64,000 nt of DNA from Gemmatimonadales bacterium (GCA_035943095.1 DASZCN010000011.1:1775-65774); one strand, 5' to 3'. Shown: positions 28,052 through 45,309, counted from the stretch's first letter. The notes: generated from the sequence alone by a model not told the origin. Made by a program: numbers and translations.

Positions 28052-29095
28052 TCAGGTGGTCAGGACGTTGCGGTATTTCTCCGGGTCGTCGAGGATCCGT
28101 CCGGTCCCCCGCACGACGCAGGTCATCGGGTCCTCGTCGAGGTGGATCGGCAGGCCCGTCTCCTGTTGCAGCAACACGTCCAGGCCGCGGATCAGCGCGC
28201 CCCCGCCCGTCATCACAATCCCGCGGTCCACGATGTCCGACGCCAGCTCCGGCGGCGTGATCTCGAGCGCGCGCCGCACGGCGTCCACGATCTGCTGGAT
28301 CGGCTCCTGCACCGCCTCCCGAATCTCACTCGAGTGCACGCGGACGATCTTCGGGATGCCCGAGACGAGGTCGCGCCCCTTCACCTCCATCTCGCGCTCT
28401 TCCCCGACCGGCGCGGCAGACCCGATCTGAATCTTGATCTGCTCTGCGGTGGGCTCGCCGATCAGGAGGTTGTAATTCTTGCGCATGAACTGCACGATCG
28501 CCTGGTCCAGCTCGTCGCCGCCCGTGCGGATGGACGTGTCCGAGACGATGCCCGACAGGGCGATCACGGCGATCTCCGTCGTGCCGCCGCCGATATCGAT
28601 CACCATGTTGCCGGTCGGCGTCTCGACCGGGAGGCCCACGCCGATCGCGGCAGCCATGGGCTCGGCGACCATGTAGACTTCCTTCGCACCCGCCGACTGC
28701 GCCGAATCCCGCACCGCCCGCTTCTCCACCTCGGTGATGCCGGATGGCACGCACACGATCACCTTGGGCTTCACGCGGAACAGGTGGCGGTCGATGATGG
28801 TCTTCAGGAAGAAACGCAGCATCTTTTCGGTCACGTCGAAGTCGGCGATCACGCCGTCCTTCAGCGGTCGCACCGCGAGGATCCCATCCGGCGTCCGGCC
28901 GAGCATCCGTTTGGCTTCGAGCCCGATGCCCTTGATTTTCCCCGTCGCCTTTTCGATCGCGACGACCGAGGGCTCGTTCAACACGATGCCCTCGCCCTTC
29001 ACGTAGATCAGGGTGTTCGCGGTGCCCAGATCCACGGCGATTTCATTCGCCGGGCTCCAGGCTCCAAGCTTGAAATTCGGCCAGCGTAGGGGCAC
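28052..29095 (-). CDS. mreB: Rod shape-determining actin homologue MreB
   Basis: ..[41 protein letters not shown].. I chose GTG 29095, giving 347 aa. The track ORF start at 30007 is a long artefactual extension. Confidence 0.9.
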
Positions 29096-29181
29096 AGGGG
29101 CACGAAGTCGTTGTGAAAGTGGTCGGGCGGGCGCGCGCGAGCGCCTCAAGCTAATGAAAAGCGTAACTTCAAGCAAGGCTG

Positions 29182-29424
29182 ATGCTTGACGGCTCTTTCG
29201 CCGGCGGCTACCGTTCGCCCATGCGACGCGCGCAGACCCCGTCCGAGATCGCGGTGGTGGACCTTCGGGTGTGCGACCGCTGCGGTCTCTGCCTGCCGTT
29301 GTGCCCGCCCGAAGCGATTCACCTGGAGCTCGCCGATCTGGTAGTGGATCGTGAAGCCTGCACCGGCTGCCGCAAGTGCATCGCTCCATGCCCGGTAGGC
29401 GCGCTGGCGATGGCAGCCGCGTGA
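29182..29424 (+). CDS. 2x[4Fe-4S] ferredoxin
   Basis: Two CxxCxxCxxxCP motifs: [12 protein letters not shown] and [12 protein letters not shown]. The start may be ATG 29221. The stop overlaps the next start as GTGA (29421..29424). Confidence 0.8.
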
Positions 29425-30605
29425 TACGCGACACCGATGTGCTGGTCATTGGTGCGGGTCCGGCCGGCGCCGTCGCCGCGCTTGAAGCGAAGCGCGCCGC
29501 GCCAGCGCTCGATGTGGTGTTGCTCGAGCGCGACGCCCTCGTTGGTTCTCCGGTGCGGTGTGCCGAGGGCGTAGGCGACGCCGGGTTGCACGAGTTCGCG
29601 GACCCGGCTGGGGGGAAGGCACCGTGGGTCGCGCGCAAGATCACCCGCGTGATCTTCCTTGCGCCGGACGACACCGAAGTCAAGGTGGCCGAGCGCGACG
29701 TGGGCTGGATTCTCGATCGCACGCGATTCGACGCGTTTCTGGCCGCACGCGCGGCGAGCGAGGGCGTCGAGGTGCTGGTCGGCACCGAGGCTGCGGGCAT
29801 GGATCGGCTGGCCGATGGTCGTTGGCAGGTACGCCTGCGCGGCGTTCCCGGCGACGACGCCATGCGCGCGCGCATGGTGATCGGCGCGGACGGCGTCGAG
29901 GCCATGGTCGGCCGCTGGGCGGGCCTCGACACCCGCGTACCAGCCCGGGACATGGAGTCGTGCGCGCAATACGTGCTGCGGGGGATCGACTTCGATCCCG
30001 ACGCCATCTACCTGCAGTTCGGGCGTGGCATCGCCCCTGGGGGCTACGCATGGGTCTTCCCCCGCGCACCAGGGGTCGCGAACGTCGGCCTCGGCCTCGT
30101 CGCTCTGAAAGCCGACGGCCGGAACGCCCAGGAATACCTGGATGCCTGGATCGCGCGCCGTTACCCTGGCGCGGAACGGGTCGGCTACACGGTTGGCGGC
30201 GTCATCACGCATACCACGATCAGGCAGACCTACACGGATGGCGTGCTCGTCGCCGGGGACGCCGCGCACATGATCAACCCCCTGTCAGGCGGCGGCATCG
30301 TCAACGCCATGAAGGCCGGCCGTCTGGCGGGCCGCGCCGCAGCGGGCGCGGTCTGCGCGGGGGATACGAGCGCGCCGCGCCTGTCGGCCTACCACAGCGA
30401 CTGGATGAGGCTGCTCGGCGATGACCACCTCAAGTATTACCGCATCAAGCAGGCGCTCGAGGACCTGGACGATGGGTTCTTCAATTCCCTGGCACGGACC
30501 GTGAATGCCATCCCGCGCGAGAAGCGGACCTTGGGTCGGATTTTTGCGCAGGCGCTGGTACGACATCCGCAGCTGATTCCGGTGGCGGCGCGGTTCTTCA
30601 TGTGA
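29421..30605 (+). CDS. Geranylgeranyl reductase family FAD-dependent oxidoreductase
   Basis: [15 protein letters not shown] (FAD dinucleotide fold)..[44 protein letters not shown].. GTG 29421 is in frame with track ORF 29376. Confidence 0.8.
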
Positions 30606-30609
30606 AACA

Positions 30610-30677
30610 GGGAGAGGGGAAGAGGGAGAGGTACCTTTGGGTGCATCGGAGGGTACCGCTCCCCGCTCCCTGCTCCC
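30610..30677 (+). promoter_or_regulatory. Long imperfect hairpin (26-nt purine-rich arm, 16-nt loop, 26-nt pyrimidine-rich arm) between the reductase stop and the fabI RBS
   Basis: GGGAGAGGGGAAGAGGGAGAGGTACC (30610..30635) pairs with GGTACCGCTCCCCGCTCCCTGCTCCC (30652..30677). By hand pairing I get 20 Watson-Crick pairs plus 1 GU out of 26. Confidence 0.45.
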
Positions 30678-30691
30678 GTTAAGGGAGAGTG

Positions 30692-31594
30692 ATGCTCAGC
30701 ATCGACCTGAGAGGCAAACGAGCACTGGTGGCAGGCGTCGCTGACGACGCCGGGTACGGCTTCGCGATCGCGAAGGCGCTGGCCGAAGCCGGCGCCACCG
30801 TTTGTACGGGCACCTGGCCGCCGGCGCTCAACATCTTCCTCAACCTGCTCGAGCGGGGGAAGATCGACGACTCGCGCCGCATGCCGGACGGCTCCCTGCT
30901 CCAATTCGAGAAGATCTATCCCCTGGACGCCGCGTACGATGCCCTGACGGACGCGCCGGAGGAGATCCGGAGCAACAAGCGCTACAAGGACGTGGGCGAC
31001 TTCTCCGTGGCGGGGCTGGCGCAACGGATGGTACAGGATTTCGGCGATCGACCACTCGATATCGTTGTCCACTCGCTCGCCAACGGGCCTGAAGTGAAGA
31101 AGCCGCTCCTCGAAACGAGCCGCACCGGATACCTCACCGCCGTGAGCGTGAGCGCGTATTCCCTCGTCTCACTGGTGGCGCGCCTCGGTCCCCTCACGCG
31201 CTCGGGCGGGTCCTTCCTCTCCCTCACGTACATGGCGAGCGAGCGCGTGGTCCCGGGCTATGGTGGCGGCATGTCGTCCGCGAAAGCGGCCCTCGAGAGC
31301 GATACGCGCACGCTCGCGTTCGAAGCGGGGCGCAAACACGGCATTCGCGTCAACACGATTTCGGCTGGACCGCTCGCGTCCCGGGCCGCGAGCGCGATCG
31401 GCAAGATCGAGCGGATGGTCGAGTACTACGCGGCGAATGCCCCGCTCACTGAGCCTCTGACCGCTCGGGAAGTAGGCACGACCGCGGCGTTTCTCGCGAG
31501 TCCCCTGGGAAGCGGCATCACAGGGACGACGATCTATGTGGACAAAGGCTACCATGCGATGGGAGCAGCGGTGGCGACGGGGAATGTCCTTTAG
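30692..31594 (+). CDS. fabI: Enoyl-ACP reductase FabI (long, plant/chlamydia-like type)
   Basis: [65 protein letters not shown].. The SD AAGGGAGAG sits directly upstream of ATG 30692. Confidence 0.85.
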
Positions 31595-32418
31595 ACCGGC
31601 GTCCGGTGCGGCGATACCCGGGCACCGGACACCAGGGACCGGACACCTTGCATCATGCTCGTCCCCACTGCGCACCGGTTCGCCGCGTGTGCCACAAGCC
31701 TCCCCAGCGTCCCCAGTGAGTCGGGTCGCAGGCCCAGCGGAACCTCTCCCACGTCCCAGGCGTACACCGGCACGCGAGACAGATTGAGGAGCGATCCGTT
31801 CCCACAGACACCACCGAAGCCCAGCTCATAGCCCGCCGCGCGCGCCGCTGCCTCGACCTCCGCATCCCGGGCCCCGAACGGATAAGCCACCGCTCGCCCC
31901 GCTCCCGTCCCCAGCCTGCGGATCAGCGTCTCGCGCGATCGCTCGAGCTCCGCGGCCCTCTCGCCCTCGGCCAACCACGTCAAGCGGGCGTGGGATGCCG
32001 AATGCGACGCGAACTCGAACCCGCGGCTCTGCCACTGAGTGATCGCCTCCCAATCGAGGTGCCTGAGGCGGCGCCACGTGTACCGAACATCCCAGGCGTT
32101 GTCGCGACCGACGAAATCGGTCACGAGAAACGTCACGGCCGTGAACCCCAGGTCGGCAAGGACCGGATAGGCGTGCTCCGCGAGCGAGGCATAGCCGTCG
32201 TCGAAGGAAACGAGGAAGGAGCGTGGCGGAGGGACGGACGACCCGCCCGGCTGGGCTCGGCGAGTGAACTCATTCAGGGTGAGCGTCGTCCACCCCGCGT
32301 TCGCGAGCGCCGTCATCTGGCGTTGGAACACCGCGCCGCGCACCCGCGTGACGCCGAGCTCGAGCGGCCCGCCGACCCTGTGGTAGCACAGAACCGGAGG
32401 CCTGGCCGCGCGCGTCAC
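31591..32418 (-). CDS. Polysaccharide deacetylase (NodB-fold) family protein
   Basis: [46 protein letters not shown] 32418 overlaps the upstream stop as GTGA. Confidence 0.75.
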
Positions 32419-33242
32419 GCCAGGTCCCCGCCCGCGGACGGCCACACCCCGTTCGCCAAGGCCGCCGACGCGTCGGCGCAGCGCGACGCGGGCTCGGGGT
32501 CGCGACACCGCCGGCCCAGCTCGGCGAGCCAGGGAGGCACCGAGCGCATCTCCTCGGGCGAGCCCGCTCCATCGACCGGCGGCCGCCCCGTCAACATCTC
32601 GTGCAGAATCACACCCACGGCGAACACATCGTCGCGTGCCCCCACGCCGGCGGCGCCATTCCGGCGCTCGGGTGCGAGGTACTCCGTGGTGCAGAGAGCC
32701 TCCACGATGGCGCCGTAGGCTTTTCCGCGAACGCTCGCGTCGAGCGAGCGTTCCACGGTGCTGAAGATGCCGGTGTCGGCGACCAGAACCTGTCCGTCCG
32801 CCAGGAGGACATGCTCGGGCTTCAGGTCGCCGTGGGCCACGCCCGCCGCGTGGGCATGCGCGAGCGCCGCGAGTATTTGGTGGAGGATTTCCACGGCGCG
32901 ACGCAACGGGAGCTCACCTTGCCGAGCCACCCACGCGCGCAGCGTGGTGCCGTGGACGAACGGCCTGGTGTGGTAGACGAACGAGCCGGCACGGCCGCCG
33001 CCACGCGGGACGACGAGCCCGGGATGGGACAAGCGGTCGCCGAGGGCGATGAGGTTCGCGGCGAACCGCGACTCGTCGACACCGAGCGATAACGATGTGG
33101 GCAGGACCTTCACCAGCATCTCCGCCCCGGTGGACTGGTCGAGGGCCACGAACATACGACAGTCTCCGACCGGCCGGACTTCGCGCTCTACCCGGTAGGT
33201 CGGCCCCAGTACCTGCCCCAGCGCCCCGCGGATGTCGGCCAC
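32415..33242 (-). CDS. Stand-alone degenerate Hanks-type kinase domain (possible pseudokinase)
   Basis: Kinase fold is recognisable (..MLVKVL..HGDLKPEHVLL..VADTG..EYLAPER..DVFAVGVILHEMLTGRPP). There is no Gly-rich loop, HRD is replaced by HGD, and the catalytic-loop Asn is His (32811..32834). GTG 33242 chosen (MADIRGALGQVLGPTYRVEREV). Confidence 0.6.
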   Translation of the reverse strand: MADIRGALGQVLGPTYRVEREVRPVGDCRMFVALDQSTGAEMLVKVLPTSLSLGVDESRFAANLIALGDRLSHPGLVVPRGGGRAGSFVYHTRPFVHGTTLRAWVARQGELPLRRAVEILHQILAALAHAHAAGVAHGDLKPEHVLLADGQVLVADTGIFSTVERSLDASVRGKAYGAIVEALCTTEYLAPERRNGAAGVGARDDVFAVGVILHEMLTGRPPVDGAGSPEEMRSVPPWLAELGRRCRDPEPASRCADASAALANGVWPSAGGDLA

Positions 33243-33306
33243 GCACCAATACCTCGGCGACGGACGTTCGAAGCGTAACGCGAGAGGCCTTGGCTCGCTA
33301 CGGACG

Positions 33307-33762
33307 TTAGGCGCCCGTACTCCCGAATCCGCCCTGCCCTCGCTCGGTCGGCGGCAGCTCACTGACCTCCTCGAGCTCCACGGCCTCGACCCGTTGAAAT
33401 ACCAGCTGGGCGATCCGCATGCCCCACTCCACCGCCACGGGCTCGGTGCCGAGGTTGATCATGGCGACCAGAAGTTCACCGCGGTAGTCCGAGTCGATGG
33501 TCGCAGGTGTGTTGGGGAGGGTCAGGCCGTGCTTCAACGCAAGGCCGGAACGGGGGCGAACCTGCGCTTCGTACCCCGGCGGGATGGCGAGCGCGAGCCC
33601 CGTCCGAACCAGACGACGCTCGAGGGGCTGAAGCGTGAAGTCCTGGTCGGCGCTGGCCAGGTCGTAGCCGGCGGCGCCGGCGGATTGTCTGGTCGGGAGA
33701 GGCAGGCCGTCGTGGTGCGGCAGTCGCAGGACCCGGACCACAGGCGGCCGCCTGACCATCAC
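33307..33762 (-). CDS. dut: dUTP diphosphatase
   Basis: ..[43 protein letters not shown]. Confidence 0.92.
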
Positions 33763-39575: not shown

Positions 39576-39977
39576 GGGGCTGAGCAGCCGCTGGATCGCT
39601 CCGACAATCCGCGCGAGCACACCCGGCGCGGGCGCCTGGGCCGGTGGAGTGGAAATCACACCCGTCGTCCGGTGGCTCTCGAGGTAGGCCTCGACCGCGC
39701 GCCGGAGCTCCTGCTCGTGCTGTTGGGGAAACGAGCGCTCCGCGAGGCGGATGTCGAAGCCCTGCCCGCCCCCGCCGACGCCGCCGAGCTCCACGATCCC
39801 CGGCGAGGCCCGATCGATGATCTCGATCAACGGACCCAACCCGTCCCGGGTCCCCGGGGTGTCGTTCCGTCCGTAATACGCCGTCGCGATCGTGATCACG
39901 AGGCGTTCCGCTTTCAGGCGTCCCGCGACGTAGTCTTGGAGCGTCTCTCTAATGCGGGAGGATTCGGAGGACATCAT
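39567..39977 (-). CDS. Hypothetical protein (last gene of the dxr-rseP array)
   Basis: 136-aa ORF overlapping the rseP 3' end by 29 nt and converging on the kinase gene with a 9-nt overlap. I recognise no family. Confidence 0.4.
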   Translation of the reverse strand: MMSSESSRIRETLQDYVAGRLKAERLVITIATAYYGRNDTPGTRDGLGPLIEIIDRASPGIVELGGVGGGGQGFDIRLAERSFPQQHEQELRRAVEAYLESHRTTGVISTPPAQAPAPGVLARIVGAIQRLLSPSA

Positions 39978-41310
39978 TGGTGATCGCGAGGATCATGATC
40001 GCCAGGAGGATCACGAAACCAGCCTGGCTCAACCTCATGCGGAGCTCGACCGACAGCGGCTTGCGGCGGACCGCTTCCGCAATGAGAAACATCAGCTGGC
40101 CGCCATCGAGTAGCGGGATCGGTAAGAGGTTCAGGATCGCCAGATTGACGGAAAACAACGCGAGGAAGGTGAGGAACCAGTCCAGGCCGAGCCGCACCAC
40201 CTGGCCGGAGATCTGGCCCACCGTGATGATGCTGCCCACTTCACGCACCGACGTCTGATGGAGGACGAGCCCCTTCAAGAAACCGAGGACGTTCAGCAGT
40301 TGACCCCAGGTTTCCTGGAGCCCGGAGATAGCCGCCTGGCCCAGAGGCTCGCGCACATGGATCGTCGGAGGATCCTGACCGGCTCCGATCGCACCGTACA
40401 CATGAGGACGAGGTGACGCCGTGTCGGTCTCGGTCTTCGCTTCCGGCACGACCGTCACCTCCAGACGCCTCCCGTCGCGTAACACCCCGAAGCGGAGCGG
40501 CTTCCCGGGGCTCCGCCAGACGGTGTGGAGCACGTCGCTCCAGGAGCGCAGCGTGTCGGCGTCGACGCGGCGGAGGAGGTCTCCCGGCTTCAAGCCCGCC
40601 CGGATGGCCGGTCGGCCAGGCTCGAGAATACCGAGCCGTGGAGGGTCGAGACGCACGAGCGCCTGGGCCAGCGCCTCGCGCGTGGCCAGCCCATTGTCCG
40701 ACAACTGCACGACGATCGGCTCCGTACGGCCCGCGACCTCGATCGCGAGATGCGAGGAGCCTCTCAGCAGGTGATCGAGCAGCACGTTCCACGAACGGAT
40801 GGTGTCGCCGCTCACTCGCACGATTTGATCGCCGAACTTGAGGCTCGCGAGCCCTTCCGCCCCCGCCGGCAAACGACTCACGTTCACCGAGTCGATCCGC
40901 GTGCTGGCAAGCTCCGGCGATCCCGCTGTCGCGGCGATGCCCGTGTAGACGAGAAACGCGAACACCACGTTCATGGTCACGCCCGCCAAGATCACGATCA
41001 TGCGCTTCCACACCGGCTGGCGGTCGAAGGCGCGCGCGGGGTCGATCGGGACATCCGACTTGCCGCCTTCGAGGGACCCCGTCATCCCTTCGTCCTCGAG
41101 CCCCGCCATCTTCACGTATCCACCCAGGGGGATGCGCGAGATCCAGTAGTCGGTCTCCCCGCGCCGCCAGCTCAGGATCGGGCGGCCGAAGCCGAGCGAA
41201 AAGCGCAACACCTGGATGCCGAGAGTCTTGGCGGCGATGAAATGCCCCATTTCGTGGACGAAAATCAGGACCGCCAGGACGACGATGACCGCGCCGAGAC
41301 TTATGAGCAC
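39949..41310 (-). CDS. rseP: RIP (site-2) zinc metalloprotease RseP
   Basis: VLISLGAVIVVLAVLIFVHEMGHFIAAK (HExxH), PDZ-like middle region, ..NLLPIPLLDGG.. GTG 41310 overlaps the dxr 3' end. The track start 41988 is an extension. Confidence 0.85.
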   Translation of the reverse strand: MLISLGAVIVVLAVLIFVHEMGHFIAAKTLGIQVLRFSLGFGRPILSWRRGETDYWISRIPLGGYVKMAGLEDEGMTGSLEGGKSDVPIDPARAFDRQPVWKRMIVILAGVTMNVVFAFLVYTGIAATAGSPELASTRIDSVNVSRLPAGAEGLASLKFGDQIVRVSGDTIRSWNVLLDHLLRGSSHLAIEVAGRTEPIVVQLSDNGLATREALAQALVRLDPPRLGILEPGRPAIRAGLKPGDLLRRVDADTLRSWSDVLHTVWRSPGKPLRFGVLRDGRRLEVTVVPEAKTETDTASPRPHVYGAIGAGQDPPTIHVREPLGQAAISGLQETWGQLLNVLGFLKGLVLHQTSVREVGSIITVGQISGQVVRLGLDWFLTFLALFSVNLAILNLLPIPLLDGGQLMFLIAEAVRRKPLSVELRMRLSQAGFVILLAIMILAITNDVLRILPH

Positions 41311-42428
41311 GCGGCCTCCCGCGCGAGGCGACGGGCCTCGGCATCGGCGGCCAGCACGGCGTCGAGCGATCCGGCATCTGTGGGGTGGTGTCCGTCCAAC
41401 ACCCGTGCCACTGTGTCCGCAATGCGGCCGAATCGGATCCGTCCGTCCAGAAACAGCCCGACCGCCACTTCGTTCGCCGCGTTGAACGCGGTGGGCGCGG
41501 TCCCACCCGCCGCGGCCGCCGCCCGCCCCAAGCCGTACGCCGGGTACAGAGCGGCGTGCACGGGCTCGAAGGTGAGCGTCCCCGCGGCCACCGGATCGAA
41601 CCGACGGGCACCGGCGTCGGGCACCCGGTCGGGGTGCGTGAGCGCATACAGAATCGGCAGCTCCATCGTGGGAAAGCCGACCTGGGCGAGGACGGACCCG
41701 TCCACGAACTCGACGAACGCGTGCACCACGGACTGCGGATGGACCACGACCTCGACGGCCTGGTACGGTAGCCCGAACAGGAAGTGGGCCTCGATCACTT
41801 CGAGCGCCTTGTTCACCAGCGTCGCGGAATCGACCGTGATCTTCTTCCCCATCTTCCAGGTGGGATGACGCAGCGCCTCGTCCACGGTGGCGTCTGCCAC
41901 CCGCTCCGGGGGCCAGGTCCGGAACGGGCCGCCGGACGCGGTGAGGATGAGCCGCGCCAGCTCGGTGGGGCGACGACCCGTAATGCACTGCAACACGGCG
42001 CTATGCTCGGAGTCGACCGGGACGATTTCACCGCCGCCCCGGCGCGCCGCCCGGGTGACGAGCTCGCCCGCCATGACGAGCGTTTCCTTGTTCGCGAGCG
42101 CGACGCGCTTCCCCGCCTCGAGCGCCGCAAGCGTCGCCTCGAGGCCCGCCGCACCGACGATACCGTTGAGCACGATGTCCACGTCCGGCCGGGTCGCCGC
42201 TTCGACGAGGCAGGCGGCCCCGTTTCCCCGCCCCCCGTCCGCCTTCGCCGAGTTCACGAGACCGACGTATCCGGGCTGCCACTCCGCGGCCTGGCGTTCG
42301 AGCAGCTCAGCGTTGGAGTACGCCGTCAGCGCCGCCACGCGGAACCGCTCCCGCTGGCGCGCCAGCACCTGCAGCGCGGAGCATCCGATCGACCCCGTGG
42401 AGCCGAGGATCGCGACGCCGACGCTCAT
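41301..42428 (-). CDS. dxr: 1-deoxy-D-xylulose-5-phosphate reductoisomerase
   Basis: MSVGVAILGSTGSIGCSALQV..ALANKETLV..PVDSEHSA..HPTWKMGKKITVDSATL.. ATG 42428 overlaps the cdsA stop as ATGA. Confidence 0.95.
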   Translation of the reverse strand: MSVGVAILGSTGSIGCSALQVLARQRERFRVAALTAYSNAELLERQAAEWQPGYVGLVNSAKADGGRGNGAACLVEAATRPDVDIVLNGIVGAAGLEATLAALEAGKRVALANKETLVMAGELVTRAARRGGGEIVPVDSEHSAVLQCITGRRPTELARLILTASGGPFRTWPPERVADATVDEALRHPTWKMGKKITVDSATLVNKALEVIEAHFLFGLPYQAVEVVVHPQSVVHAFVEFVDGSVLAQVGFPTMELPILYALTHPDRVPDAGARRFDPVAAGTLTFEPVHAALYPAYGLGRAAAAAGGTAPTAFNAANEVAVGLFLDGRIRFGRIADTVARVLDGHHPTDAGSLDAVLAADAEARRLAREAACS

Positions 42429-43279
42429 GCCAGACCAAAGACCCGCAGCAGCCCTGCGGTGATGGGGAGAACGAAGTACAGCGAGTCGAGCCGGTCGAGT
42501 ACGCCGCCGTGACCGGGAATGAGCGACGATGAGTCCTTCACGCCGACCTCCCGCTTGAACAGGGATTCGGCCACGTCGCCGACCTGGGCCACGATCGCGA
42601 CCACCAGCCCCAAGGTGACGAGCTGTCCGACGCTGAGGCGCACAGCCACCCGTTCGAGCACCAGGGACCCGTACACCAACGCCGCCCCGAGCCCGCCCAC
42701 GACCCCCGCGATAGCTCCGGCCCAAGTCTTTCGGGGGGACAGGACCGGAGCGAGTTTCGGGCCTCCCACCAGGGCGCCGCCCGCCATGGCGCAGGTGTCG
42801 CACACCCAGGTGATCGCGAGCGGCAGGACCGCGAGCGCCACCGAGCCGCGCGGGTGCGCGTCCACGTGTGGGCCGTGGCGGATCGCCACGATGAAGGAGA
42901 GCAGGGCCGACGCGTACAGGGCGCCGAACACCGTGACCGCGACAGCCGTAAGCGGGTGATGGTCCGGCCCACGGGCCGCCGCCACGACGAGCGCGATGAT
43001 CAGCCAGATCGCGCCCGCGTACACGACGGGCTCCCAATCCGCAGAAGTCTTCACCCAGTAAGTGGCGAGCGGTCCCAGCGCCGCGGCGATGAACCCGACC
43101 CACTCGAGGGCTTCGATCCCCTGCCGGCGCGCGAGGTCGTACACCTCGCGCGTGCCGAGGACACCCAGAATGGCCAGCATACCGGCGAGCCACCATCCCC
43201 CTACCGCCAGGAGGGCGAGCGTGCCCGCGATCGCCGGCACAGCCACCCCGATGCGTACGAGCAGGCTGCGGGAGATCAC
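42425..43279 (-). CDS. cdsA: Phosphatidate cytidylyltransferase
   Basis: ..SPRKTWAGAIAG..GDVAESLFKREVGVKDSSSLIPGHGGVLDRLDS.. GTG 43279 overlaps the uppS stop as GTGA. Confidence 0.85.
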   Translation of the reverse strand: MISRSLLVRIGVAVPAIAGTLALLAVGGWWLAGMLAILGVLGTREVYDLARRQGIEALEWVGFIAAALGPLATYWVKTSADWEPVVYAGAIWLIIALVVAAARGPDHHPLTAVAVTVFGALYASALLSFIVAIRHGPHVDAHPRGSVALAVLPLAITWVCDTCAMAGGALVGGPKLAPVLSPRKTWAGAIAGVVGGLGAALVYGSLVLERVAVRLSVGQLVTLGLVVAIVAQVGDVAESLFKREVGVKDSSSLIPGHGGVLDRLDSLYFVLPITAGLLRVFGLA

Positions 43280-44016
43280 GCGGTGACTTTGCCGAACCGG
43301 CGATCGCGCCGCTGATAGTCGAGAATCGCCTGGAACAGCTCCCGGCGCGTCATGTCCGGCCACAGGACGGGCGTAATGTAGAGCTCGGTGTAGGCCAGCT
43401 GCCAGAGTAGAAAGTTGGAGAGCCGGTACTCGCCCGACGTGCGGATGAGGAGGTCGGGATCGCTCCACGGCGCGGTGTACAGGCGCTCGCGCACGGCGTC
43501 CTCGTCGATGTCCTCGAGCCGCTTGACGCCCTTCAGGACCTCCTCGGCCAGGAGCCGCGCGGCGCGCGCCAGCTCCGCCCGCGAGGAATACGAGACGCAC
43601 AGGTTGAGCGCGAGGCGCCCTCCGCTGCTTGTCTCACGCTCGATCCTCTCGACGGCCGCCCGCGCTCTGGGGGCGAGCCGCGTGCGGTCTCCCAGTACGT
43701 GAACCGCCACGCCCTGTCCCGCGAGCTCTGCTACCTCACCCGCGATGTATTCCTCCAGCAGCTGCATGAGCGCGGAGATTTCGGTGACCGGCCGCTGCCA
43801 ATTCTCTTCGGAGAAGGCGAACAGCGTGAGCACCTCCACGCCCGCCTCGATGGCGCCTTCTACCGCCTCGCGCACCGCCTTCATGCCGGCACGGTGACCG
43901 AGGGGCCGTGGCAGGCTGCGCTCACGCGCCCAGCGACCGTTGCCGTCCATGATCACCGCGATGTGGCGCGGGACGGCCCCGTTGACGCGGATCTGAGCGA
44001 GCAGATCGTCCGCCAT
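43276..44016 (-). CDS. uppS: Undecaprenyl-diphosphate synthase
   Basis: HIAVIMDGNGRWA..LTLFAFSEENWQRP..RTSGEYRLSNFLLWQLAYTELY.. Confidence 0.95.
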   Translation of the reverse strand: MADDLLAQIRVNGAVPRHIAVIMDGNGRWARERSLPRPLGHRAGMKAVREAVEGAIEAGVEVLTLFAFSEENWQRPVTEISALMQLLEEYIAGEVAELAGQGVAVHVLGDRTRLAPRARAAVERIERETSSGGRLALNLCVSYSSRAELARAARLLAEEVLKGVKRLEDIDEDAVRERLYTAPWSDPDLLIRTSGEYRLSNFLLWQLAYTELYITPVLWPDMTRRELFQAILDYQRRDRRFGKVTA

Positions 44017-44017
44017 G

Positions 44018-44578
44018 CTAGACCTCCATGATCTCCGCTTCTTTGCCCTTCACCGCTTCGTCCACGAGCTTCAGGTGCTCGTCGTGCAGCTTCTGGACGT
44101 CCTTCTCGGTGTGCTTCTTCTCGTCGTCGGACACATGCTCGGTCTTCTTGATACGGCCAATGGCTTCGGAGCGGGCGTGGCGGACCGCCACGCGGCCTTC
44201 CTCGGCGAACTTGTGGATCACCTTGACGAGCTCCCGGCGCCGCTCTTCCGTGAGCGGCGGAAGGGGGATCCGGATGATGTTGCCGTCGTTCGATGGGGTG
44301 AGACCGAGGTCGGACGCGAGAATCGCCTTCTCGATAGCCTTCAAGACCGATTTGTCCCACGGCTGGATGGTGAGGAGCTTCGGTTCCGGTGCGGCGACGC
44401 TCGCCACCTGATTGAGCGGCATCTCGCTGCCGTAGGCGTCGACCCGCACAAGATCGAGAAGCGCAGTCGTGGCCTTGCCCGTGCGGACGGTCGAGAATTC
44501 CCGCTTCACGGCATCCACGGCCTTGTCCATCGCCTGCTTGGCCTGCTTGACGTGTTCCGCCAGGGGGGAGGAGGTCAT
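44018..44578 (-). CDS. frr: Ribosome recycling factor
   Basis: ..[47 protein letters not shown].. Confidence 0.95.
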
Positions 44579-45309
44579 TGCACGATCGTGCCGACGCGCT
44601 CGCCCGCCAATACCCTCGCTGTCGCGCCGGGCTGGTTGATGTTGAAGACGACGATGGGAAGCTTGTTCTCTTTACACAGGCCGAACGCGTTCGCGTCCAT
44701 CACGGCATACCCCTTCACGAGCGCCTGCTGAAACGACAGCTCCGCAAGGAACTTGGCCTTGGGCTCCTTCTTCGGGTCCGCCGTGTAGACGCCGTCCACG
44801 TTGGTGGCCTTGAGCAGCACCTTGGCCTCGATCTCGAGTGCGCGGAGGACCGCGGCCGTATCTGTGGAAAAATACGGGTTTCCCGTCCCCCCGGCGAAAA
44901 TGACCATCCGTCCCTTTTCGAGATGGCGCAGGGCGCGGCGCCGGATGTAGGGCTCTGCGAGCTCCTCCATCCGAATCGCCGACATGACGCGCGTGTCGAC
45001 GCCCTTCTTCTCCAGTATGTCTTGGAGGGCGAGGGCGTTGATCACGGTCGCGAGCATTCCCATGTAATCCGCCGAGACGCGGTCCATGCCCTGCTCGCTC
45101 GCCGCCGTGCCGCGCAGGATGTTGCCGCCGCCTACCACGAGGCCAAGCTGCACTCCCACGCTCGCGACGCGTTTCAGCTCGTCGGCAAGATGATCGATGA
45201 ATCCGAAGTCAATTCCCCCGCCCGCGCCTCGCTCACCCGCGAACGCCTCACCCGAGATCTTGAGTAGGGCGCGTGGGTACGCGAGGGTGGGACGGGGGGC
45301 AGTCGCCAC
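44575..45309 (-). CDS. pyrH: UMP kinase
   Basis: ..[56 protein letters not shown].. Confidence 0.95.

Follow-up and report, generated by a model that had tools for sequence, protein, structure and literature searches.

The window analysed here is a stretch of 64,000 nucleotides from a Gemmatimonadales bacterium (GCA_035943095.1 DASZCN010000011.1:1775-65774), whose genome assembly comprises 3.44 Mb in 148 contigs and is 95% complete. Within it, positions 29182 to 30605 of the plus strand hold two genes, one for a 2x[4Fe-4S] ferredoxin of 80 residues (29182..29424) and one for a flavoenzyme of the geranylgeranyl reductase (GGR) family of 394 residues (29421..30605), and this pair is the subject of the present study. 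The ferredoxin was assigned from its translation and from matches to the Pfam Fer4 family, and the reductase from the family model TIGR02032 and a match to the Protein Data Bank (PDB) entry 3oz2. The two genes overlap by 4 nt at 29421..29424, where the sequence GTGA accommodates both the ferredoxin stop codon TGA (29422-29424) and the reductase start codon GTG (29421-29423), exactly as an earlier note on this DNA had described.

Sequence analysis revealed that the ferredoxin open reading frame encodes two CxxCxxCxxxCP motifs, and that its product exceeds the cut-offs of the Pfam Fer4 and dicluster models. All eight cysteines and the second CP are invariant in an alignment of 69 orthologues, and the overall identity outside Gemmatimonadota is only 26%–38%. 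Given that some orthologues begin at the position of the second ATG, at 29221, translation may start there. We propose that this ferredoxin is an electron-donating partner or subunit of the reductase.

The reductase scores 198.5 bits on TIGR02032 against a cut-off of 158.8, and 76 bits on the Pfam model GGR_cat (PF22578) against a cut-off of 27. In 69 relatives, the motifs GxGxxG, R46-C47-x-E49, R100xxF103, D157-G158, PxGYxWxFP(x8)GxG, G279-D280 and GGG (residues 290-292) are invariant, as are the single residues G11, G13, G16, P206, G208, W211, F213, P214 and G223. In the literature, the GGR motifs, including those of archaeal type that this protein carries in full, are defined as RCxEG with the catalytic Cys, RxxFD, YxWxFPx7-8GxG, (L/V)xGD and GGG (PMC10821996, PMC6309074). 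The reading of this protein as a GGR-family flavoenzyme with the GxGxxG fold for flavin adenine dinucleotide (FAD) and the GGR blocks, first made in the earlier note, is thus borne out by both the family model and the invariant motifs.

The closest solved structure is the lipid GGR of Thermoplasma acidophilum (PDB 3oz2; E 4.8e-51, residues 5-362), with which the window protein shares a full-length alignment, the FAD fold, the Cys47 region and the YxWxFP and GD motifs. Consistently, the next-best models describe archaeal digeranylgeranylglycerophospholipid reductases, the Thermoplasmatales model matching over its full length at 192.5 bits. The scores on the archaeal equivalogs NF041160, NF041080 and NF041385 (192.5, 113.7 and 80.9 bits) all fall below the respective cut-offs of 780, 580 and 700, so that by these lineage-specific models the protein represents a related clade rather than an orthologue. 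The Thermoplasma enzyme is set apart by this distance (192 bits against the equivalog cut-off of 780) and by its electron donor, as it can use NADH in vitro (PMC9385802), unlike the donor proposed here. The models of other flavoenzymes fit less well: the protein reaches 115 bits against 343.3 on TIGR02023 (BchP/ChlP) and 41.1 against 700 on NF045655 (MenJ), and halogenase models match it much more weakly than the GGR family model does. Moreover, no photosynthetic reaction-centre gene (Photo_RC) was found in the source genome. The reductase therefore stands apart from BchP, MenJ and the halogenases, as the idea of an unusual lipid put forward in the earlier note presupposed. Two further GGR-family paralogues are encoded elsewhere in the source genome. 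One (G000:C123:8868-10070) scores 214 bits on TIGR02032 and is sporadic, occurring in 3 of 60 relatives; the other (G000:C75:12438-13367) scores 153 bits, just under the cut-off.

The pairing of the two genes is conserved. In related genomes, the ferredoxin gene lies directly upstream of the reductase gene in 10 of 10 orthologous loci. Scanning species-representative genomes yielded 80 GGR loci in total, in which a pair was defined by a small same-strand open reading frame with two CxxCxxCxxxC motifs that ends no more than a few hundred bases from the reductase gene; 70 of them have such a ferredoxin upstream. Among these paired loci the ferredoxin gene mostly ends within 25 bases of its partner, and the identical 4-nt overlap recurs in several. 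They cover Gemmatimonadota, KSB1, Latescibacterota, Calditrichota, Fidelibacterota, Ignavibacteriota and Cloacimonadota, together with four of four methanogen-type archaeal loci. Three of the 10 unpaired loci are located at contig edges, and two others have a ferredoxin gene 1–2.5 kb upstream. An order that is kept in all orthologous loci and in most distant ones cannot be ascribed to chance, and it strengthens the suggestion of the earlier note that the ferredoxin is a dedicated donor, which hinged on its conservation beside the reductase.

A search of 1.8 billion cluster representatives with the reductase returned a tight group, beyond which identity fell to 45% or less; the first outgroups belong to Latescibacterota, Anaerolineae, Cloacimonadota and Delongbacteria. 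Of the 80 loci, 24 are from Gemmatimonadota (44%–90% identity, all metagenome bins), and those at 35%–47% identity come from KSB1, Latescibacterota, Calditrichota, Bacteroidota, Marinimicrobia/Fidelibacterota, Ignavibacteriota and Cloacimonadota. Four archaeal loci, at 39%–40% identity, represent Methanocellales, Methanolobus and two "Halobacteriota/Euryarchaeota" bins. A maximum-likelihood tree unites 22 Gemmatimonadota sequences, the window protein and one unlabelled bin in a single clade (SH-aLRT 100), while two deep Gemmatimonadota sequences (L069 and L085) are not resolved at the base. Most of the phyla hold together as groups, and the archaea appear as a single clade placed among bacterial sequences. 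The outgroups were the two paralogues from the source genome (C123 and C75), whose branches of about 6 substitutions per site are so long that the root is unreliable; accordingly, we do not infer from the tree whether transfer ran from archaea to the Fibrobacteres–Chlorobi–Bacteroidetes (FCB) bacteria or in reverse. Two tandem GGR copies were seen in one genome of the phylum that contains Ignavibacteria (G143:C63:100966-103357).

We then modelled the complex of the ferredoxin and the reductase with FAD and two iron-sulfur clusters, in three runs with three controls. The ipSAE value is 0.93 in all three runs, compared to 0.00 for the best of the three controls; at least 81% of the contacts are common to the runs, and the pLDDT of the partner is at least 78. 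When the tool was calibrated, its pass mark was cleared by 58 of 80 solved complexes and by 2 of 110 mismatched pairs, a rate that is only roughly valid here because our own alignments and ligands were used. In the predicted interface, the cluster loops of the ferredoxin (residues 32-50 and 65-73) contact R46 of the reductase, beside Cys47, as well as residues 159-165 and 257-262. The prediction supports binding of the ferredoxin to the reductase.

Another flavoprotein related to GGR, FixC, is likewise encoded together with a small iron-sulfur partner, FixX, and the FixC structure 7koe is among the PDB matches of the reductase. The pair might thus be a unit of this kind, akin to the electron-transfer flavoprotein (ETF):quinone oxidoreductases, that moves electrons between ferredoxin and quinone and saturates no lipid. 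FixC does belong to a family related to GGR, FixX is a small ferredoxin-like protein, and the FixC models PRK10157 and PRK10015 match the reductase weakly. However, these matches amount to 35.7 and 48 bits against cut-offs of 610 and 466, compared to 198 bits on the GGR family model, and both the catalytic Cys of GGR and its YxWxFP lipid-site motif are kept invariant. In addition, the ferredoxin is of the simple 2x[4Fe-4S] kind and its gene comes first, and no ETF (fixAB) genes lie beside the pair in the window; in the window and in orthologous loci its neighbours are mreB and either fabI or a deacetylase gene. A FixC/FixX-like role is therefore extremely unlikely.

As to the substrate, the earlier note had offered a polyprenyl lipid, an ether-type lipid, a quinone or a hopanoid side chain, and had proposed a search for genes resembling those of the geranylgeranylglyceryl phosphate synthase (GGGPS) and the digeranylgeranylglyceryl phosphate synthase (DGGGPS). 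Both kinds were found in the source genome. A GGGPS-family gene (G000:C62:15130-15786; PF01884, 117.5 bits) lies between alaS and genes of the SIS and SDR families, and its product scores 165.6 bits on TIGR01768 against a cut-off of 113.25. Among the four UbiA-family genes of the genome, one encodes a heme O synthase, one an MqnP/UbiA-like protein, and one (G000:C109:6334-7155) a DGGGPS-like prenyltransferase, whose best matches, PRK12884 and PRK12882, stay below their cut-offs. Two trans-polyprenyl synthases are encoded as well. The start of the DGGGPS-like gene is overlapped by the stop codon of an upstream GT4 glycosyltransferase gene (the two genes together span G000:C109:5213-7155; L026 377-2319), an overlap kept in seven of the eight related loci examined, and this coupling hints at a glycosylated ether lipid.

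The distribution of these genes mirrors that of the reductase. GGR is present in 10 of 60 Gemmatimonadota genomes, all from five genera of one family. PF01884 occurs in exactly these 10 genomes and in none of the 50 others, and DGGGPS-like UbiA orthologues (E <= 1e-77) are found in exactly the same 10 of the 60. As a control, the paralogue C123, carried by 3 of the 60 relatives in addition to the source genome, shows a distribution that differs from this trio. PF01884 is found in 49, and a DGGGPS-like UbiA in 48, of 50 further GGR-bearing genomes from other lineages. In 51 genomes of the phylum holding Ignavibacteria, PF01884 is present in 9 of 9 GGR carriers versus 25 of 51 genomes overall, and GGR never occurs without it. 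The implication of GGGPS by GGR recurs across phyla. Given that the pair tracks the GGGPS-like and DGGGPS-like genes exactly, the ether-type lipid is favoured among the four substrates suggested, over the polyprenyl lipid, the quinone and the hopanoid side chain.

Because the pair is accompanied by GGGPS-family and DGGGPS-like genes, the candidates for the two enzymes that build archaeal-type ether lipids, it probably saturates such lipids. We accordingly assign a probability of roughly 0.7 to the pair being a saturase that depends on ferredoxin and acts on isoprenoid glycerol ether lipids of the archaeal type, and propose a putative model for its action. The dicluster ferredoxin would be produced together with the flavoenzyme by way of the overlapping stop and start codons, and would dock beside the FAD site and hand low-potential electrons to FAD. 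Subsequently, the reduced flavin and the conserved Cys47 would saturate C=C bonds of geranylgeranyl-type chains. The substrate would most likely be an isoprenoid glycerol ether lipid made by the products of the GGGPS-family gene on contig C62 and the DGGGPS-like gene on contig C109. As a result, the organism would make saturated archaeol-like, possibly glycosylated, lipids beside its ordinary fatty-acid lipids. In this model we infer the electron flow, the actual substrate, the stereochemistry of the glycerol and the existence of the lipid itself.

Several points weigh against this assignment. The GGGPS-family protein scores 151.4 bits on TIGR01769, just under the cut-off of 161.55, and the C109 UbiA matches PRK12884 and PRK12882 over the full length at 156 and 152 bits, below the cut-offs of 269 and 296. 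Glycerol-1-phosphate dehydrogenase was not found in the 95%-complete genome, in which the sole PF13685/NF002022 match is AroB (TIGR01357, 379 bits); this gap is shared by most FCB phyla (PMC6431249). The three sets of genes lie at separate places in the source genome, and the co-occurrence in Gemmatimonadota may reflect one ancestral gain, which would leave few independent events, as the relatives are not independent. GGRs are promiscuous in vitro (PMC6309074), and the model of the two proteins may have been informed by FixC-FixX, a solved complex from the related family. Finally, the clade is uncultured, and its ether lipid is predicted from genes. The CDP-archaeol synthase CarS was likewise not found in the genome, the sole CarS-like match being the bacterial cdsA (window 42425-43600); the same gap has been reported for Cloacimonetes (PMC7852524).

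Some of these points would also fit a reductase with a different polyprenyl substrate, for example a menaquinone side chain in the manner of MenJ, a polyprenol or dolichol-like carrier or a carotenoid, with its link to GGGPS and DGGGPS reflecting shared ancestry only. The GGR family reduces many prenylated substrates (PMC6309074, PMC10821996), the genome holds an MqnP/UbiA-type prenyltransferase and two polyprenyl synthases, the dehydrogenase was not found, and the pair is physically unlinked to GGGPS or DGGGPS. In fact, no GGGPS or DGGGPS gene was found within 6 kb of GGR in any of the 80 loci. Nevertheless, the low scores on the MenJ and BchP/ChlP models argue against such a substrate, and so does the distribution of the pair: it is absent from 50 of 60 Gemmatimonadota genomes and tracks GGGPS, including 49 of 50 GGR carriers elsewhere and all nine in the second phylum sample, while heme O synthase and prenyltransferases of the menaquinone type are part of the normal housekeeping complement. 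Another polyprenyl substrate is thus unlikely.

The missing dehydrogenase bears on a further explanation, raised by Coleman et al. for FCB bacteria without this enzyme (PMC6431249), namely that GGGPS, DGGGPS and GGR function in the uptake, remodelling or degradation of environmental archaeal lipids rather than in making a membrane lipid of the cell. We consider this very improbable. No catabolic purpose is obvious for an enzyme that reduces double bonds, and the Cloacimonetes GGGPS and DGGGPS proved synthetic in Escherichia coli (PMC7852524). The genes are also single-copy and 74%–91% identical within the clade, as expected of a maintained biosynthetic function.

The proposed ether-lipid saturase is reminiscent of the unit of Methanosarcina acetivorans, in which reduction of archaeal lipid by GGR in E. 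coli depends on the ferredoxin encoded next to it (Isobe et al. 2014, J Bacteriol 196:417, as cited in PMC9385802 and PMC10821996). Synteny of ferredoxin and GGR genes is common in Euryarchaeota (PMC9385802, PMC10821996). As in M. acetivorans (also as cited in PMC7852524), a small ferredoxin gene adjoins an archaeal-type GGR gene with the same catalytic motifs, and the Methanolobus (Methanosarcinaceae) and Methanocellales loci belong to the same GGR family at 39%–40% identity with a ferredoxin gene upstream on the same strand. The likeness to Methanosarcina drawn in the earlier note is thereby supported in the form of a conserved, co-translated ferredoxin partner. Unlike the Methanosarcina unit, the pair resides in a bacterium with fatty-acid synthesis genes, its genes overlap by 4 nt, its ferredoxin is 33%–36% identical to the archaeal ones, and its function is predicted from sequence. 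No radical SAM gene like that of the tetraether synthase (Tes) was found beside the Methanolobus GGR, the flanks of which hold only CofH/MqnC-like radical SAM genes and TrkAH.

Among bacteria, GGGPS and DGGGPS of Cloacimonetes give rise, when expressed in E. coli, to unsaturated archaeol-PG (Villanueva et al. 2021, PMC7852524), and Cloacimonetes genomes carry Euryarchaeota-like GGRs (PMC7852524). Gemmatimonadetes are among the 12 FCB phyla reported to have GGGPS and DGGGPS orthologues (Coleman et al. 2019, PMC6431249). The gene set described here agrees with this FCB set in combining GGGPS, DGGGPS and a Euryarchaeota-like GGR, with glycerol-1-phosphate dehydrogenase mostly missing. In contrast to the FCB set at large, it is restricted to one subclade within a single family of Gemmatimonadales (10 of the 60 genomes sampled). 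The Gemmatimonadales GGGPS and DGGGPS-like genes are dispersed, whereas those of Cloacimonadota are adjacent (G097:C35:25853-27401; G100:C56:4984-6533; G110:C116:6037-7595), and the coupling of the DGGGPS-like gene to a GT4 glycosyltransferase is a feature of Gemmatimonadales beside the FCB set. The main texts of PMC7852524 and PMC6431249 contain no description of a ferredoxin beside a bacterial GGR.

The genes around the pair were also analysed. On its upstream side, mreB (28052..29089, minus strand), identified from its translation, is transcribed divergently and is followed by mreC and the PBP2 gene, assigned by Pfam and NCBIfam models; of the 10 orthologous loci, 8 likewise have mreB as the divergent neighbour. 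The intergenic region of about 92 bp (29090..29181) presumably contains the promoter of the pair, a presumption made from position, as a consensus scan of the region found no sigma-70 promoter. A simple insertion of the pair beside mreB was considered and rejected: in five relatives lacking the pair, both the deacetylase gene and fabI are absent upstream of mreB, and a clean empty site could therefore not be delimited.

On the downstream side, fabI (enoyl-ACP reductase) follows on the same strand from its ATG at 30692 to 31594, as the earlier note had indicated, and scores 500.5 bits on NF004957 (PRK06300). This PRK06300 type, at 500 bits, differs from the common FabI models, on which it reaches about 175 bits or less. 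The 86-nt spacer between the two genes (30606..30691, plus strand) contains a GA-rich/CU-rich hairpin (about 30608-30672) and then the ribosome-binding site of fabI. It folds at -46.6 kcal/mol (z -4.4), and none of 200 shuffled sequences is as stable. The spacer has no U-tract and received no terminator call; the hairpin could affect the translation of fabI or the stability of the transcript. As fabI comes after GGR in no more than 4 of the 10 orthologous loci, and the strong hairpin separates the two genes, we place fabI outside the conserved module. It is also downstream of GGR in a subset of the Gemmatimonadales loci among the 80 wider ones. In the other orthologous loci the next gene is a convergent polysaccharide deacetylase gene, which is the conserved downstream neighbour in relatives without fabI at that place. 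In the window, this PgaB/IcaB-like deacetylase gene and a Ser/Thr protein kinase gene (31591-33362, minus strand) are convergent with fabI.

The earlier note had also taken cdsA, uppS and dxr, which it placed 11 kb away, as part of a lipid-gene context. The cdsA and uppS genes lie 12 kb from the pair and belong to a generic pyrH, frr, uppS, cdsA, (dxr), rseP housekeeping cluster (window 39949-45309, minus strand), in which cdsA has a weak CarS-like Pfam match, and their proximity was rejected as evidence. Given the variable adjacency of fabI and the generic nature of this cluster, the neighbours are uninformative on the reductase, and the argument from lipid-gene context does not stand.

In summary, the archaeal-lipid gene set of FCB bacteria and the ferredoxin dependence of a methanogen GGR are already published, and the present findings overturn neither. 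What is new is that the ferredoxin-GGR unit is conserved across FCB bacteria and, in the samples searched, is found almost only where GGGPS is present; that a tight complex of the two proteins is predicted; and that the Gemmatimonadales DGGGPS-like gene is coupled to a glycosyltransferase. A more far-reaching picture is offered tentatively, at less than even odds: this uncultured soil and groundwater clade of Gemmatimonadales may routinely make saturated, archaeol-like, probably glycosylated diethers in a mixed membrane, with the ferredoxin as a tightly bound subunit and a backbone source independent of glycerol-1-phosphate dehydrogenase. The range of the candidate trait now extends to a common soil phylum, and the ferredoxin-GGR pair provides a sharp genomic marker for bacteria that go past ether-bond formation to chain saturation. 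Reconstituting bacterial synthesis of archaeal-type lipids may require co-expression of the cognate ferredoxin. Living bacteria with mixed archaeal and bacterial membranes, should they exist, would matter directly for the "lipid divide" and for how the early evolution of membranes is modelled.

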